IMG/VR virus record: IMGVR_UViG_2711768074_000019
Source: a virus
Lineage: Duplodnaviria > Heunggongvirae > Uroviricota > Caudoviricetes
Strand: one strand, 5' to 3'
Length of the DNA: 4,078 nt
Position numbers and translations under genes: made by a program. Position 1 is the stretch's first letter. Every line of letters begins with the position of its first letter. Positions 1-4,078 of this stretch are shown here, piece by piece. A model generated the notes under the pieces. The model saw only the letters and a list, made by a program, of their open reading frames with translations. It was not told the origin of the DNA and did not search any database.

Positions 1-83
1 TAGTCATGTGGGATGGCTGGTTCAGACTTCAGGATATGGTTGAGGGTTACCTGGTGATGAAGTCTCTTGATCAGGAGATCTGA
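1..83 (+). CDS. IS4-family (IS50-like) transposase, C-terminal fragment; the 5' part lies outside the window
   Basis: Seen: in-frame codons from position 3 translate to VMWDGWFRLQDMVEGYLVMKSLDQEI, then stop. Recalled Tn5 Tnp tail ALWEGWEALQSKLDGFLAAKDLMAQGIKI aligns without gaps (W-[DE]-G-W, LQ, [DE]-G-[FY]-L, K-x-L, terminal I). Identity is only about 40 percent by eye. Confidence 0.65.
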   Translation, partial: VMWDGWFRLQDMVEGYLVMKSLDQEI

Positions 84-92
84 TCAAGAGAC
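62..92. repeat. Palindrome inside the IS end (13-bp arms 62..74 and 80..92, 5-nt centre) carrying three GATC Dam sites
   Basis: Seen: gtctcttgatcag / gagat / ctgatcaagagac, with GATC at 69..72, 77..80 and 82..85. The same structure is mirrored at 3985..4015. Knowledge: the IS50 inside end is regulated by Dam methylation of GATC sites. Confidence 0.6.
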
Positions 93-182
93 AGCCGCAC
101 AGGGGGATTCACCATGCCAGTTTCTTTTAACAAACTCCCCGCAAAACAGACAACTGTCAACCGTCTGAATTGTGAGACATTT

Positions 183-206
183 AAAAAAAAGCCCGCAAAA
201 GCGAGC
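183..206 (-). terminator. Rho-independent terminator closing the minus-strand tRNA transcription unit
   Basis: Seen: the minus-strand RNA reads GCUCGC-UUUU-GCGGGC (6-bp stem with one G.U pair, from 206..191) followed by eight U (complement of A183..A190). Confidence 0.7.
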
Positions 207-221
207 CAGGGAAAATAAGTG

Positions 222-298
222 TGGCGCGTTGTACTGGATTCGAACCAGTGACCGATTGCTTAGAAGGCAATTGCTCTGTCCGGCTGAGCTAACAACGC
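222..298 (-). tRNA. argO: tRNA-Arg (anticodon UCU)
   Basis: Seen: the reverse complement folds as a cloverleaf with acceptor stem GCGTTGT/ACAACGC, T-loop GGTTCGAATCC, anticodon loop CU-UCU-AA and a 3' GCCA. It closely resembles E. coli argU by eye. The symbol is assigned from its position in an ileZ-argN-argO-like cluster, not from a search. Confidence 0.8.
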
Positions 299-311
299 AG
301 GATACAGATAA

Positions 312-388
312 TGGACCGCCTTCGGGGACCCGAACTCCGCGCAACCAGCTTCGAAGGCTGGCGCTCTTTCCTGATGAGATAATGGCGG
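312..388 (-). tRNA. argN: tRNA-Arg (anticodon UCG), with an atypical T-arm
   Basis: Seen: acceptor stem CCGCCAT/AAGGCGG (one A-A mismatch), anticodon stem-loop CCAGC-CTTCGAA-GCTGG and a 3' TCCA. The T-loop is TTCGGGT (G where A58 is normally conserved) and the T-stem has one mismatch. The symbol is assigned from cluster order only. Confidence 0.65.
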
Positions 389-395
389 TATGTGA

Positions 396-471
396 TGGTG
401 GCCCTTGCTGGATTTGAACCAGCGACCTGGCGATTATGAGTCGCTCGCTCTCACCACTGAGCTAAAGGGCC
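396..471 (-). tRNA. ileZ: tRNA-Ile2 (anticodon CAU, lysidine type); formally tRNA-Met cannot be excluded
   Basis: Seen: GGCCCTTTAGCTCAGTGGTGAGAGCGAGCGACTCATAATCGCCAGGTCGCTGGTTCAAATCCAGCAAGGGCCACCA, with a perfect 7-bp acceptor stem and anticodon CAT. It is near-identical in layout to E. coli ileX/ileY as recalled. It is the first gene of the Ile-Arg-Arg cluster. Confidence 0.8.
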
Positions 472-480
472 GCGCGCAGA

Positions 481-510
481 ATAATAACGTTACGGAATTA
501 ATACTGCAAT
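481..510 (-). promoter_or_regulatory. Candidate sigma70 promoter for the tRNA cluster
   Basis: Seen on the minus strand: -35 TTGCAG (510..505), 18-bp spacer, -10 TATTAT (486..481), then a GC-rich discriminator (GCGCGC) about 9 nt before the tRNA-Ile 5' end. Inference only. Confidence 0.4.
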
Positions 511-520
511 CTCATCCGTT

Positions 521-1570
521 TCAAACGATTAAATCCTGAACTTCCCTGACTGTCTGCTCAAAACGTCCGGTCTCCAGCTCAACACCAATCGCACGACGCC
601 CCAGTGCCATCGCCGCTTTTACCGTTGAACCCGACCCCATGAAAAAATCCGCAACCAGATCACCAGGACGACTACTTGCGCTGATTATCTGCTGCAGCAT
701 TTCTGCCGGTTTTTCGCACGGATGTTTCCCTGGATAGTACTGCACCGGTTTATACGTCCACACATCGGTGTACGGCACCTGCACCGTCACACCGAAATAC
801 CGCCGCAAATTTTTATATTCACTCAGCAGTTCCATATACTGCCGGTTCAGCTCACTGTATGTGCTGACCAGCTGGTGGTGTGGCTTTTCCAGTTCCCCGC
901 GCTGATGTTTCTCTTCTGCCACCCGGGCAAACAACGCCTGCAATTTGTTGTAATCACCCTCGTTCGGTAACTGCCACTGACTGGTACCAAACCAGTGCGA
1001 AGCCATGTTTTTCTTTCCGGTGGCTTCCGCTATCTGTTTTGACGTTATTCCCAGTGATTTACGCGCATCACGAAAGTAAGAAATCAGCGGGGCCATGACG
1101 TGCTGTTTTAGCTCGCGCCCCTGTGCCACATAGCCATCATCTTTCGGGCGATACGGTCCCTGATAATGTTCTGCAAACAGAATGCGCTCTGTTGCCGGAA
1201 AATACGCCCGCAGACTTTCCTTATTGCACCCGTTCCAGCGTCCGGACGGCTTCGCCCAGATAATGTGGTTCAGCACATTAAAGCGCTCACGCATCATGAT
1301 TTCGGTGTCAGATGCCAGGCGATGACCACAGAACAGGTAAAAACTTCCGGCAGGCTTCAGTACCCGCCAGAACTGCGCCAGACACTGGTCCAGCCATTTC
1401 AGGTAATCATCGTCGCCCTCCCACTGGTTATCCCAGCCCTCGGGCTTCACTTTAAAGTATGGCGGGTCTGTGACTATCAGATCGACAGAGTTTTCCGGTA
1501 AGGTCTGGATAAATTCCAGGCAATCAGCGTTGATTAACTCACAACTGGATATTTTTACAGTATTAGCCAT
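521..1570 (-). CDS. Beta-class DNA amino-methyltransferase (N6-adenine or N4-cytosine), orphan within this window
   Basis: Seen in the 349-aa ORF: N-terminal DLIVTDPPY (motif IV), HPCEKP, and C-terminal DLVADFFMGSGST (FxGxG AdoMet motif I). Motif IV before motif I is the beta-class order. The central region carries an HTH-like LGITSKQIAEATGK. No endonuclease gene is nearby. Confidence 0.85.
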   Translation of the reverse strand: MANTVKISSCELINADCLEFIQTLPENSVDLIVTDPPYFKVKPEGWDNQWEGDDDYLKWLDQCLAQFWRVLKPAGSFYLFCGHRLASDTEIMMRERFNVLNHIIWAKPSGRWNGCNKESLRAYFPATERILFAEHYQGPYRPKDDGYVAQGRELKQHVMAPLISYFRDARKSLGITSKQIAEATGKKNMASHWFGTSQWQLPNEGDYNKLQALFARVAEEKHQRGELEKPHHQLVSTYSELNRQYMELLSEYKNLRRYFGVTVQVPYTDVWTYKPVQYYPGKHPCEKPAEMLQQIISASSRPGDLVADFFMGSGSTVKAAMALGRRAIGVELETGRFEQTVREVQDLIV

Positions 1571-1711
1571 AGATCAATAAGCACTTCTCTGATAGGCTCA
1601 TACCGCTTTTGCGCAAAGCAGATGGGCCTGAGGTTTGCTTGTGACCCCAACGCATGAGCAGATGGCTGGCAGGTGCCGCTAACACCCACCAGCCGCCCAT
1701 TACCACAAATT

Positions 1712-1733
1712 AAAAAACCTTCACTGAGGAAGG
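1712..1733 (-). terminator. Weak hairpin plus U-run overlapping the stop codon of the small HTH ORF; possible attenuator or weak terminator
   Basis: Seen: a 5-bp stem CCTTC/GAAGG (1718..1722 with 1729..1733) and a 6-nt loop. On the minus-strand RNA it is followed by six U (complement of A1712..A1717). The stem is short, so this is weak. Confidence 0.3.
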
Positions 1734-1918
1734 CGTCTGTAACAACCGAACTGATAATCTGCCAGACCCGCCATAACAAGCTGAGTCAGTATTAACTGGC
1801 AGCGTTCGCGTGAAAGGTAAGTATTCTGCGCAATTTCCCCGACGGTCGCCGGTTCGGTGACGCTTAATTCATTAAACACCACTCTGGCGGTTTCGGTCAT
1901 ATCCTGCTGTTTTAGCAT
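1721..1918 (-). CDS. Small hypothetical protein (65 aa) with a predicted helix-turn-helix
   Basis: Seen: internal ATG at 1918..1916 preceded by AAGGG about 8 nt upstream. Product MLKQQDMTETARVVFNELSVTEPATVGEIAQNTYLSRERCQLILTQLVMAGLADYQFGCYRRLPQ. The segment ATVGEIAQNTYLSRERCQLILTQL looks like an HTH; this is inference from the pattern. The longer track ORF (to 2041) starts at GTG directly against the terminator and is less plausible. Confidence 0.45.
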   Translation of the reverse strand: MLKQQDMTETARVVFNELSVTEPATVGEIAQNTYLSRERCQLILTQLVMAGLADYQFGCYRRLPQ

Positions 1919-2041
1919 GCCTTTTTCCCTTTTCCGGTTAACGTGACATACCAATACCTCTTGTCGAAAAAGCCAGCAAGCTGAAAGACCGGCATTCGCA
2001 ACCACCAGCGCATTTAACGTCCTGTACCGCTTTTCGGGCAC

Positions 2042-2069
2042 AAAAAAACCCGCATAAAGCGGGTTCTTT
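2042..2069 (-). terminator. Strong intrinsic terminator (hairpin usable on both strands) about 85 nt downstream of the Q-like gene; tR'-like
   Basis: Seen: stem CCCGC/GCGGG (2049..2053 with 2059..2063, extendable by two A-T pairs) and loop ATAAA. The minus-strand RNA is followed by seven U (A2042..A2048); the plus strand is followed by TTCTTT. Confidence 0.75.
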
Positions 2070-2153
2070 CAGGTGTCCATGTCTGCTATTCGCCTCGCGG
2101 TATAGCTTTGCGAAGCGTAGCTGGATTGAAACAGTTTATGCGTAAAAAATCAA
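2070..2153 (-). promoter_or_regulatory. Candidate late promoter and Q-utilisation region (pR'-like) between the Q-like stop and the terminator
   Basis: Seen: a weak candidate -35 TTGATT (2153..2148, overlapping the stop codon), 17-bp spacer, -10 TTCAAT (2130..2125). This -10 lacks the conserved A at position 2. Placed mainly by analogy to the lambdoid Q-pR'-tR' layout. Confidence 0.3.
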
Positions 2154-2704
2154 GACATTTTTTGAGCAAACGATTCTCGCATAGGGATGTATAGCGCATA
2201 TTCAGCAACAGCCAACCAATTAGCAATTCGCTTTTCGCATGTACTAAAACACCATTCCGGGTGCACCTCATTCAACAATTCAGCCATTTTGCGTTTACTC
2301 ATCCCCCGCCCTTCGTATCTTTGCCGCAGGATATCAATCAATCCAGGATAACGTGCAAGCGCTTTACTTATCACCCCATCAATGCGTAACGCCTCTGCAT
2401 CAGTACAGTGAGACAACCAGCTCTTCTGTCTGCCAGCGATCATCTCTCGCAAGAATGCTTCCAGCTCTGGTTTATCAATCCCTGACTCCCTGATTCTACG
2501 CAGGGCTTCATTGATCGCGGTTTTTGTCAGTTTTTTGGATGTCAGCAACTGATTGAACATATTTCCTGGTTTGCCACCACCTATGTACGACCAACGCCCC
2601 CACATCCGTAATTTCCCCTGGATCCAGACGGCTTCCAGCGTTTTTAGACGTAAATGCTCGCCGCTTTTGCCTGTAATTTCCGGGTATATCATATTTACGA
2701 TCAC
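2150..2704 (-). CDS. Putative late-gene antiterminator Q-like protein
   Basis: Seen: a 184-aa ORF starting at GTG 2704..2702, which overlaps the RusA stop (GTGA); an alternative ATG lies at 2692..2690. It contains LRMWGRW, reminiscent of the L-x-R-W-G-x-W N-terminal motif I recall in phage 82-type Q. Synteny also fits: RusA then Q, as in DLP12 and phage 82, followed about 90 nt later by a strong terminator. No domain search was run. Confidence 0.5.
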   Translation of the reverse strand: MIVNMIYPEITGKSGEHLRLKTLEAVWIQGKLRMWGRWSYIGGGKPGNMFNQLLTSKKLTKTAINEALRRIRESGIDKPELEAFLREMIAGRQKSWLSHCTDAEALRIDGVISKALARYPGLIDILRQRYEGRGMSKRKMAELLNEVHPEWCFSTCEKRIANWLAVAEYALYIPMRESFAQKMS

Positions 2705-3060
2705 TCACTCTCAATTTTGTAAATCTTCACGCCCAGCCGCCCCCCAGGAACGAGCTGACCGCGCACAATATTAATTTCATCAAACTGCTCGTCGTCTATG
2801 AGAAGTCCGGCATGCGTCAGCGCATCCAGTGGTGCTTTCAGGATATTGTCCAGGTCACGACGACGCTTATCCGGTGGCTCTGCAATAATCTTTATCGCCA
2901 GCCGTCCGGACAGGTTTAATTTCAGCCGCTGCTCGCGAACAATTAGCGCCACATCCCGGCGATAACGCTCACCGGCTTTTGATACAAAATATGTGTTGTC
3001 ACGACGTCGCCAGTAGGTGTTCACCGTTGGCGGGTAAGGCAAAACAAACTCTATACGCAT
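2701..3060 (-). CDS. rusA: Holliday-junction resolvase RusA (crossover junction endodeoxyribonuclease)
   Basis: Seen: 119 aa with LPYPPTVNTYW, DKRRRDLDNILKAPLDALTHAGLLIDDEQ and GGRL, matching the RusA signature and its acidic catalytic residues. SD AAGAGG lies 6 nt upstream of ATG 3060..3058. Confidence 0.9.
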   Translation of the reverse strand: MRIEFVLPYPPTVNTYWRRRDNTYFVSKAGERYRRDVALIVREQRLKLNLSGRLAIKIIAEPPDKRRRDLDNILKAPLDALTHAGLLIDDEQFDEINIVRGQLVPGGRLGVKIYKIESE

Positions 3061-3072
3061 CAGTAACCTCTT

Positions 3073-3978
3073 TTACCCAAGCACGCCGGTTGCAAAGGCG
3101 TGATCAAGAAAATGAAAAATTAAATCAACCTGGGAACCATGCTTTTCTTCGAATGCCAGCGGATCCGCATGAAGCTCGTTGTGATGTTCCCGACACAGCG
3201 GTAGTGTGAAAATATCGTGGGATTTTGTTCCCATTCCACCCTGACCGTGGCCTATCAGGTGGTGGGCATCATCAGCAGGCTTTCCGCAACATGCGCACGG
3301 CTGCGTCTTAACCCAGCGCGTGTACTTTTCATTAACCCAGCGGCGACGTTTTGGGCGTAACATAAAAGACTCCGGCGACTCCGGATCCACTTTCAGCGCC
3401 AGCACCTTTTTCGCCTTATCCTGGATGATGCTGGTGGCAGGAACCGAAGGCACAAGGTCACTTTCCCGGGTAACAGACGGCACAACAGGCTTCGGTAATC
3501 TCAGTGCCTTACGGGCTGCACTTTCCGATAAGGCATCCGCCAGATCATTACGAATCAGCCACCAGCACAGTTCCGGCATTGTCACAACGTGACTGTCGTC
3601 AAAACCGAGCTCCCGACGCACAACAGACAACACCCAGCGGGCACAGTTATCCGTTGCCATTGATTCCAGCCGTTCCGTGAACTGATCGCGCAGCTGGTTA
3701 TCGCAGTGCCAGCACAGACGGATTGCGCCCGGAGCGTGTCGCATTGTGGTCATGTTCTCGCTGTGCCAGTTGGAATGAGGCCACTGACAGCCCTTTTCAC
3801 GAAGTAACCAGCTTTCAAGACATTCCACGCCACCAGCACGACGGATCACTGCCTCATTGCGGAACACGGCCCGAACGGCAGGATCATCCGCCAGCGGTTG
3901 TGATGCCGCCGGAACGGCACCACTGGCAAAAGATGAATAACGTTCCGGCTCAGGCTCCAGCAGGACACGCCCCTGCAT
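3073..3978 (-). CDS. DUF968 / YdfU-like prophage protein with a C-terminal HNH-like zinc-binding nuclease domain; possibly N-terminally truncated by the IS
   Basis: Seen: 301 aa. The C-terminus PCACCGKPADDAHHLIGHGQGGMGTKSHDIFTLPLCREHHNELH has the Cys/His spacing and G-x-GTK element of HNH-like prophage nucleases (compare DLP12 YbcO as recalled). The ATG at 3978..3976 is only 5 bp from the IS end. Confidence 0.55.
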   Translation of the reverse strand: MQGRVLLEPEPERYSSFASGAVPAASQPLADDPAVRAVFRNEAVIRRAGGVECLESWLLREKGCQWPHSNWHSENMTTMRHAPGAIRLCWHCDNQLRDQFTERLESMATDNCARWVLSVVRRELGFDDSHVVTMPELCWWLIRNDLADALSESAARKALRLPKPVVPSVTRESDLVPSVPATSIIQDKAKKVLALKVDPESPESFMLRPKRRRWVNEKYTRWVKTQPCACCGKPADDAHHLIGHGQGGMGTKSHDIFTLPLCREHHNELHADPLAFEEKHGSQVDLIFHFLDHAFATGVLG

Positions 3979-3982
3979 AAAC

Positions 3983-4078
3983 CTGTCTCTTGATCAGATC
4001 TCCTGATCAAGAGACTTCATCACCAGGTAACCCTCAACCATATCCTGAAGTCTGAACCAGCCATCCCACATGACTACC
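3983..4078 (-). mobile_element. Second, inverted copy of the IS50-like inner end; transposase on the minus strand, again reading towards the cargo
   Basis: Seen: 3983..4076 is the exact reverse complement of 1..94. It begins CTGTCTCTTGATCAGATCT at 3983..4001 and runs off the window edge. Confidence 0.75.
3994..4078 (-). CDS. IS4-family (IS50-like) transposase, C-terminal fragment (second copy)
   Basis: Mirror image of feature 1..83, with stop codon TGA at 3996..3994 on the minus strand. Confidence 0.65.
   Translation of the reverse strand, partial: VVMWDGWFRLQDMVEGYLVMKSLDQEI

Follow-up and report, generated by a model that had tools for sequence, protein, structure and literature searches.

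This locus raises the question of whether a pair of insertion sequences (IS) has made a mobile unit out of a piece of phage genome. The window, by which we mean the whole 4,078-nucleotide (nt) stretch analyzed here (Caudoviricetes virus record IMGVR_UViG_2711768074_000019 of IMG/VR), begins and ends with inverted termini of one and the same element, ISEc13, and genes for a Q-like late antiterminator, a DNA methyltransferase and three tRNAs lie in between. The original prediction saw in it a Tn5-like composite transposon that would move this cassette independently of any phage, and gave as the alternative that the same IS had entered a prophage twice, independently. It is the alternative that explains the data best: the window probably records two separate simple ISEc13 insertions in situ, 3.9 kb apart, in an ordinary lambdoid prophage, and each of the two is found alone elsewhere, with its own 8-bp duplication. 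What the window shows is an established IS in a familiar kind of prophage, bounded by a break in the assembly.

The window and its ends

ISEc13 is an IS of the Tn5/IS50 cut-and-paste type, and its termini are named here after the inside end (IE) and the outside end (OE) of IS50. Those parts of it that are present in the window, with the target sites next to them, are the following (E2348/69 is an O127:H6 strain of enteropathogenic E. coli, EPEC).

1 to 94, + strand: 3' end of ISEc13 copy A, with the last ~27 transposase codons and the stop codon TGA at 81-83; 100% match to ISEc13; cut at the contig edge
76-94, + strand: IE-like 19-bp tip of copy A, AGATCTGATCAAGAGACAG
95 to 102, no strand: CCGCACAG, 8 bp duplicated around ISEc13 at the same site in E2348/69
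3975 to 3982, no strand: GCATAAAC, 8 bp duplicated around ISEc13 at the same site in DEC EPEC strains
3983 to 4078, - strand: 3' end of ISEc13 copy B; 100% match to ISEc13; transposase stop codon at 3994-3996 on the - strand; cut at the contig edge
3983-4001, - strand: IE-like tip of copy B, CTGTCTCTTGATCAGATCT

A repeat search of the window pairs positions 1-94 with 3983-4076 as an inverted repeat of 94 nt, 100% complementary and enclosing 3,888 nt, which is far beyond chance expectation; the predicted reverse-complementary edges of 94 and 96 bp are thus real. Positions 4077-4078 have no partner within the window, yet they are still part of the same element, as 3983-4078 matches ISEc13 at 96 of 96 positions. 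The prediction of IS50-like ends was also correct: in both copies the IE-like tip and the transposase C-terminus point at the cargo, as in Tn5, and the OE-like end points outward.

The 301-amino-acid (aa) product of a truncated DUF968 gene at the right-hand end of the cargo served for an exact look-up, and one contig was returned, CYGG01000169.1 of the E. coli draft assembly GCA_001284325.1, the only one for which exactly this product is on record. With its 4,078 bp it is the same sequence as the window from end to end; the window is thus an entire draft contig, which contains just 94 nt (left) and 96 nt (right) of the two ISEc13 copies. The repeats run to the contig edges because the assembler halted ~k-1 bases into a multicopy repeat. 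The edge is therefore an assembly break at a repeat rather than a sampling edge.

A short draft contig that ends in a multicopy repeat, with junctions that each occur singly in other strains, may also be an artefact, in which the IS ends do not both lie beside the segment on one molecule (for instance because a duplicated prophage segment was collapsed, or because the population was mixed, with one insertion in each subpopulation). This we regard as extremely unlikely. At both junctions the boundary with the IS tip is exact to the base, and the run of 94-96 nt into the IS at each end is expected of an unbranched path from unique DNA, whereas a path through a collapsed or mixed structure would fork at the junctions and the contig would end there. 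The DUF968 allele of the window, moreover, differs from that of the DEC strains that have the right-hand insertion, and the contig is therefore no mix of those genomes. With two simple insertions, a short-read assembler unable to resolve the multicopy IS would have emitted the unique DNA between the copies plus ~k-1 bases of the IS at each end. In practice, a small contig with inverted IS termini is usually a product of assembly, and is no evidence for a composite transposon.

Identity of the insertion sequence

The right-end 96 nt are 100% identical to the 'IS4-like element ISEc13' of many genomes. The end sequence of ISEc13 is found in 2,464 of the 5,426 complete E. coli genomes searched, in ~30 places in E2348/69 alone, and in ~1,000 plasmids; the element is abundant in EPEC-lineage E. 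coli. A complete copy, located between satP and mog in E2348/69, is 1,550 bp long. Its IE-like tip lies 11 nt past the transposase stop codon, and the other, OE-like tip is CTGTCTCTTATACACAAAT (locus L002, 4032-4050), the OE-like end reading ...ATTTGTGTATAAGAGACAG. The transposase was examined on this full copy, the window having its last ~27 codons only. It is a protein of 457 aa with the Pfam domains Tnp_DNA_bind, DDE_Tnp_1 and Dimer_Tnp_Tn5; its alignment with Tn5 transposase structures spans the whole protein (E = 7e-83), and the Y(2)R(3)E(6)K motif is kept, YERRWLIEEYHKAWK standing in the alignment opposite YTHRWRIEEFHKAWK of the Tn5 enzyme.

Members of the IS50 subgroup are 1350-1550 bp in size, have ends of the form CW------Y---CA-A--W- and make target duplications of 8-9 bp (PMC2266710, Table 1). 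ISEc13 agrees in its 1,550 bp, in both tips (CTGTCTCTTGATCAGATCT and CTGTCTCTTATACACAAAT), and in a duplication of 8 bp at six of seven distinct full-copy sites, the seventh having 11 bp. The ends of the window belong to ISEc13, of the IS4 family, IS50 subgroup. The tip CTGTCTCTTGATCAGATCT is also what we take to be the 19-bp IE of IS50/Tn5. A primer for mini-Tn5 has this very string (PMC12310338).

An adapter or tagmentation artefact was considered as the source of the ends and rejected: the 96 nt match a natural 1,550-bp IS, and the window sequence departs from the Nextera mosaic end past the tip. Past the tip it presumably departs from IS50 as well. The Tn5 mosaic end is at the same time the Nextera adapter sequence. 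The first 16 nt of the OE-like tip of ISEc13, CTGTCTCTTATACACA, are identical to the mosaic end (PMC3347997), and with these 16 nt shared, adapter trimmers could clip real ISEc13 ends. Conversely, the protein P0003 ends in PVSYTHLDVYKRQ, which resembles a translated Nextera adapter left in an assembly.

The same likeness to Tn5 is what speaks for a composite transposon, in which ISEc13, cargo and ISEc13 would have moved as a whole by means of the two outside ends and would now lie away from the parent prophage. The two copies lie inverted as in Tn5, OE-like ends outward and IE with transposase C-terminus inward; the transposase of ISEc13 is a full-length Tn5-type enzyme, and the IE-like tip has the same two GATC sites as the IE of IS50. 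Dam methylation of Tn5 end sequences inhibits transposase binding, according to the statement in PMC3347997 that cites Yin et al. 1988; by analogy with Tn5, methylation at the GATC sites of the IE-like tips would favor OE-OE use. Nevertheless, the geometry weighs little, as inverted copies with IE inward are one of only four possible two-copy arrangements, and we hold this reading to be very unlikely. The cargo and the junctions, described below, disfavor it further.

The segment between the ends

By its sequence, the cargo is a slice of an ordinary lambdoid prophage, stx-negative and similar to Shiga toxin (Stx) phages, and not a self-contained cassette, because it is colinear with the prophage of E. 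coli O55:H7 RM12579 and with the Q-methylase-tRNA segment of Stx2 phages. Positions 95-3982, ending exactly at both IS tips, align in one piece with the RM12579 prophage at 99.87% identity, and nearly as well in the O111:H2 strain 12A. The RM12579 prophage is uninterrupted; past the tRNAs it has a SASA-family esterase, holin, lysozyme and lysis genes, and on the other side the first 28 DUF968 codons, followed by helicase and replication genes. A cargo contiguous with ordinary prophage in related strains had been named beforehand as an outcome that would overturn the composite, and this is the situation in RM12579. The genes of the cargo, with its terminator-like hairpin, are listed below.

190 to 207, - strand: terminator-like hairpin, GGCTCGCTTTTGCGGGCT then a T run, downstream of the tRNA cluster
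222-298, - strand: tRNA-Arg(UCU); tRNA call, Rfam agrees
312-388, - strand: tRNA-Arg(UCG); tRNA call, Rfam agrees
396-471, - strand: tRNA with anticodon CAU; tRNA-Met (CAT) by ARAGORN, tRNA-Ile (ileZ) in RM12579 and in Stx-phage records
521 to 1570, - strand: DNA methyltransferase, 349 aa; N6_N4_Mtase, E = 8.7e-45; named DNA-methyltransferase in RM12579
1721 to 1918, - strand: hypothetical protein, 65 aa; no Pfam family; 'TrmB family regulator' in some related records
2150 to 2692, - strand: Q-like late antiterminator, DUF1133, 180 aa; DUF1133 E = 1e-102
2701 to 3060, - strand: RusA Holliday-junction resolvase, 119 aa; Pfam
3073 to 3982, - strand: DUF968 gene, 5'-truncated; 301 of 329 codons left, an internal ATG at 3978 heading the open reading frame (ORF)

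The content that had been predicted, a Q-like gene, a methyltransferase gene and tRNA genes, is there, the tRNAs being three in number and joined by RusA and the truncated DUF968 gene. As to its being self-contained, every gene is indeed on the - strand and a terminator-like hairpin (207-190, - strand) closes the series, but the right-hand IS cuts the DUF968 gene in codon 28, and 28 codons are lost from the window. What a composite would carry is thus a gene fragment cut within DUF968 and 99.9% identical to prophage DNA in situ. The nin-region genes of the cargo are without their upstream promoter context, and the late genes that Q would serve lie past the left-hand IS. Relatives of the prophage have the lambdoid order DUF968 - RusA - Q-like - methylase - tRNAs, with replication genes upstream and lysis genes downstream.

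The Q assignment is supported by a score of 28.1 bits against Phage_antitermQ (cut-off 26) and by a related Stx2a phage, in which the gene goes by the name of quuQ or antitermination protein Q. The tRNA cluster at 222 to 471 is the ileZ-argN-argO cluster of Stx-type lambdoid phages, and an Rfam scan of the window found nothing besides these three tRNAs. ileZ reads AUA by means of a lysidine-modified anticodon. The earlier description 'rare-codon tRNA' is therefore right; the amino acid in the label tRNA-Met for 396-471 is wrong.

The left and right junctions

Neither inner junction of the window is unusual for an ISEc13 insertion, and each is documented in other strains with its own duplication and with prophage beyond the outside end. 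At the left, CCGCACAG and the GGGG that follows it are half of a target palindrome CCCCT-N8-GGGG, and RM12579 has the empty site, CCCCT-CCGCACAG-GGGG. Among the complete E. coli genomes, a left-junction probe of 111 nt, with 35 nt from the IS and 76 nt from the cargo, has a match of 100% identity in E2348/69 and in three further O127:H6 genomes, where the junction always belongs to a single simple insertion. In E2348/69 a single ISEc13 separates the tRNAs of a lambdoid prophage from its late genes, which lie past the OE end, and is flanked by the 8-bp direct repeat CCGCACAG: ...CCCCTCCGCACAG|IS|CCGCACAGGGGG... (L004, 7460-7485/9036-9060).

At the right, GCATAAAC is preceded by CCCCT, and in uninterrupted sequence is followed by AGGGG, the empty site being CCCCT-GCATAAAC-AGGGG. 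A right-junction probe had no match in the complete E. coli genomes, and an exact scan of metagenome contigs for this junction likewise found none. A simple insertion with an 8-bp duplication at this site predicts, however, a specific far-side product, an ORF of 48 aa that runs from the DUF968 N-terminus through GTTTATGC into the OE end. This stub exists exactly as predicted (P0001, 'hypothetical protein ECDEC2B_4929'), on five contigs of DEC-collection EPEC drafts. Three DEC contigs have the whole 1,550-bp ISEc13 with GTTTATGC on both sides in an otherwise continuous prophage, the order being KilA-N, stub, ISEc13, the 301-aa DUF968 remainder, Q, esterase and lysis genes (flanks in DEC2B: L052, 10060-10088/11639-11665). 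A separate duplication around each IS had been proposed as the mark of independent insertions; it is found in other strains (E2348/69 and DEC), with a length of 8 bp and not the 9 bp expected.

The DUF968 allele beside the IS in DEC strains is ~92% identical to that of the window, and mismatches begin 31 bp from the tip; the IS copies differ from one another by only 1-2 nt in 1,550. Young IS copies are thus found in old, diverged alleles at the same nucleotide, which argues for recurrent, target-directed insertion.

A variant of the stub, P0026, has 60 aa and is carried on a 5.05-Mb contig. In several DEC strains an IS21-family element (rve and IstB) in the same prophage splits the Dam methylase gene into pieces of 85 aa and 185 aa (L053, 5811-8455, and likewise L054 and L055); in DEC2B (L052) this gene is intact, with 217 aa.

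Searches for the bracketed unit in other places tell against the composite too. Each inner junction is explained by a simple insertion that is seen alone elsewhere, and the unit of IS, cargo and IS is absent from 5,426 complete E. coli genomes, 72,556 plasmids, 50,697 phage records and a scan of metagenome contigs, no record in these sets spanning both junctions. Plasmids gave distant prophage-like matches to the cargo only (86-92%) and no copy bracketed by ISEc13. The proposed search for the same cargo in different contexts has therefore come back empty in these collections, and with the cargo contiguous in RM12579, the insertions single elsewhere and the diagnostic 301-aa product on one contig only, movement of the cassette independently of phage is not supported. 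That the two copies form a working composite, able to carry antiterminator, orphan methyltransferase and rare-codon tRNA genes to new replicons, with Dam-sensitive IE-like ends favoring OE use by analogy with Tn5, is in our judgement very unlikely. Were joint transposition of the pair shown, it would give a first, if modest, case of phage regulatory and tRNA genes mobilized by an IS50-type element.

Target preference of ISEc13

Apart from the two window sites (84-107 and 3965-3990), target preference was examined at L002, L004, L052, L057-L062 and L006-L050. Across Enterobacterales, 45 loci with the same IE tip gave 41 unique IE-side flanks. CCC is present at -15..-8 in 37 of these 41 (90%), as against 5.8% at random positions in the same loci, and an enrichment of G is seen at -3 to -1. 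A large number of the sites fall in palindromes of the form CCCTCTCCC...GGGAGAGGG, which resemble repetitive extragenic palindromic (REP) sequences; terminator-like hairpins are frequent targets too. All seven distinct full copies with both flanks have inverted C-rich/G-rich arms around the duplication; the empty site between satP and mog, for example, reads CCCC-CCGCTCGG-GGGG (L002, 2480-2500/4051-4075). In the yhhY-ggt intergenic region of NZ_CP090611.1 (L060), the direct repeat on either side of ISEc13 is 11 bp long, CACCTACCGGG, where 8 bp is usual.

ISEc13-type elements thus show a strong preference for the centers of short palindromes with C/G arms, approximately CCCY-N8-RGGG, and both window sites are such targets. 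This preference for CCC..N8..GGG palindromes explains why insertion recurs at the same nucleotide. The same nucleotide is occupied by ISEc13 in diverged prophage alleles, whose identity is 92% at the right site and, for the left site in an island of Nissle 1917 and uropathogenic E. coli (UPEC), 78%; the positions are 94/95 and 3982/3983 in the window, L004 9035/9036, L005 5035/5036 and L052 11638/11639. Near-identical IS copies in diverged alleles point to recurrent hot-spot insertion, not descent. The literature searched that mentions ISEc13 gave no account of a palindrome preference for it, and a clear target rule for ISEc13-type elements is the most useful by-product of this analysis.

The left-site copy of Nissle 1917 needs separate consideration. 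In this genome (NZ_CP022686.1; L005, 3497-7258) and in >400 others, a frameshifted ISEc13-like copy (96%) lies beside iroB at the homologous left site, its IE end running into a decayed phage remnant with tRNA-Arg, of 70-78% identity. On the OE side it has no matching duplication and abuts unrelated island DNA; it follows that rearrangement or deletion has affected the far side. Either a hot spot or an old insertion would account for this copy. It was also tried in two other roles and rejected in both: as an IS-phage junction moved to a non-phage context, since what is there is a decayed phage remnant beside a frameshifted ISEc13-like copy, and as a composite, since the other 'IS4 family' fragment nearby has no relation to ISEc13 (BLASTP E = 1.3).

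Such events bring up the reading in which the outer context of the window was rearranged by IS without composite transposition, through inversion of the 3.9-kb segment, or through inversion or deletion with other ISEc13 copies. Strains of this type have up to ~30 copies, the Nissle/UPEC copy shows that events of this kind occur, and a segment between 1.55-kb inverted repeats cannot be oriented by short reads. Direct evidence for rearrangement in the source genome is lacking, and events beyond two insertions are required. We consider this reading unlikely.

Two probable insertions in one prophage

Two simple insertions would account for the window as follows. Each ISEc13 copy would have landed in a preferred C-rich/G-rich palindrome, CCCCT-N8-(A)GGGG, the left one just past the tRNA terminator and the right one in codon 28 of the DUF968 gene, and the inverted orientation with inside ends inward would be due to chance. 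The outer flanks in the source genome should be the rest of the same prophage, with OE|CTGTGCGGAGGGGCAATCAGCGAG... leading into its late region on one side, and OE|GCATAAACAGGGGCATCAGCTCTGAACC... leading into the 5' end of DUF968 and then the replication genes on the other.

Several observations weigh against this explanation. The OE-side flanks of both copies in the source genome are unseen, and the completeness of each copy and its own duplication are unproven there. The stub P0001 is not on record for GCA_001284325.1, which may merely reflect the annotation of that assembly. Finally, the window, RM12579 and E2348/69 do not differ at any of the 95 bp nearest the left junction, and because of this identity shared descent with prophage mosaicism and independent insertion are indistinguishable for the left copy.

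If both insertions are in place, the right copy would cut Q off from early rightward transcription, and the left copy would stand between the lysis and structural genes on one side and the tRNAs with the Q-dependent late promoter region on the other. With Q isolated on both sides, late genes are probably not properly expressed from this prophage. The two 1.55-kb inverted copies would also allow inversion of the segment by homologous recombination, with an orientation invisible to short reads.

Comparison with known systems

As far as ISEc13 itself is concerned, the 94 and 96 nt of the window are 100% identical to its transposase-3' end, no difference being visible within the 94-96 nt of each copy, and the left junction is that of one E2348/69 copy. 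With Tn5 the window shares two inverted IS50-type copies with inside ends inward, and transposases that are homologous over their full length. The OE of Tn5, CTGACTCTTATACACAAGT (PMC3347997), and the OE-like tip of ISEc13, CTGTCTCTTATACACAAAT, differ at 2 of 19 positions. Unlike that of Tn5, the cargo is a truncated prophage slice and not a set of selectable genes, and there is no sign of the unit ever having moved and no outer duplication was seen; ISEc13 also makes duplications of 8 bp rather than 9 bp and has a much stronger target preference.

Other IS4-family elements likewise insert at a short inverted repeat with G/C-rich arms. IS231A, reportedly described by Hallet et al. in 1994, is said to have the consensus GGG-N5-CCC, from which ISEc13 differs in the polarity and spacing of the arms (CCCY-N8-RGGG). 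A degree of insertion specificity is recorded for IS231A (PMC2266710).

Stx2-converting phages have the same gene order as the window, and many Stx2a/c/d phages are ~90% identical to it over 184-3982, the window being without stx genes. This homology ends at about position 184, and the stx-negative prophages of RM12579 and E2348/69 have the hairpin target there instead. The sharp palindrome preference of ISEc13 brings repeated hits at the same nucleotide in diverged prophages, including the interval where Stx phages have their Shiga-toxin genes. In the Stx2a phage Stx2a_1447, stx2A and stx2B come directly after argO, and the left ISEc13 of the window, ~128 bp past argO, stands in the interval that stx2AB holds in that phage (L051, 1707-3115).

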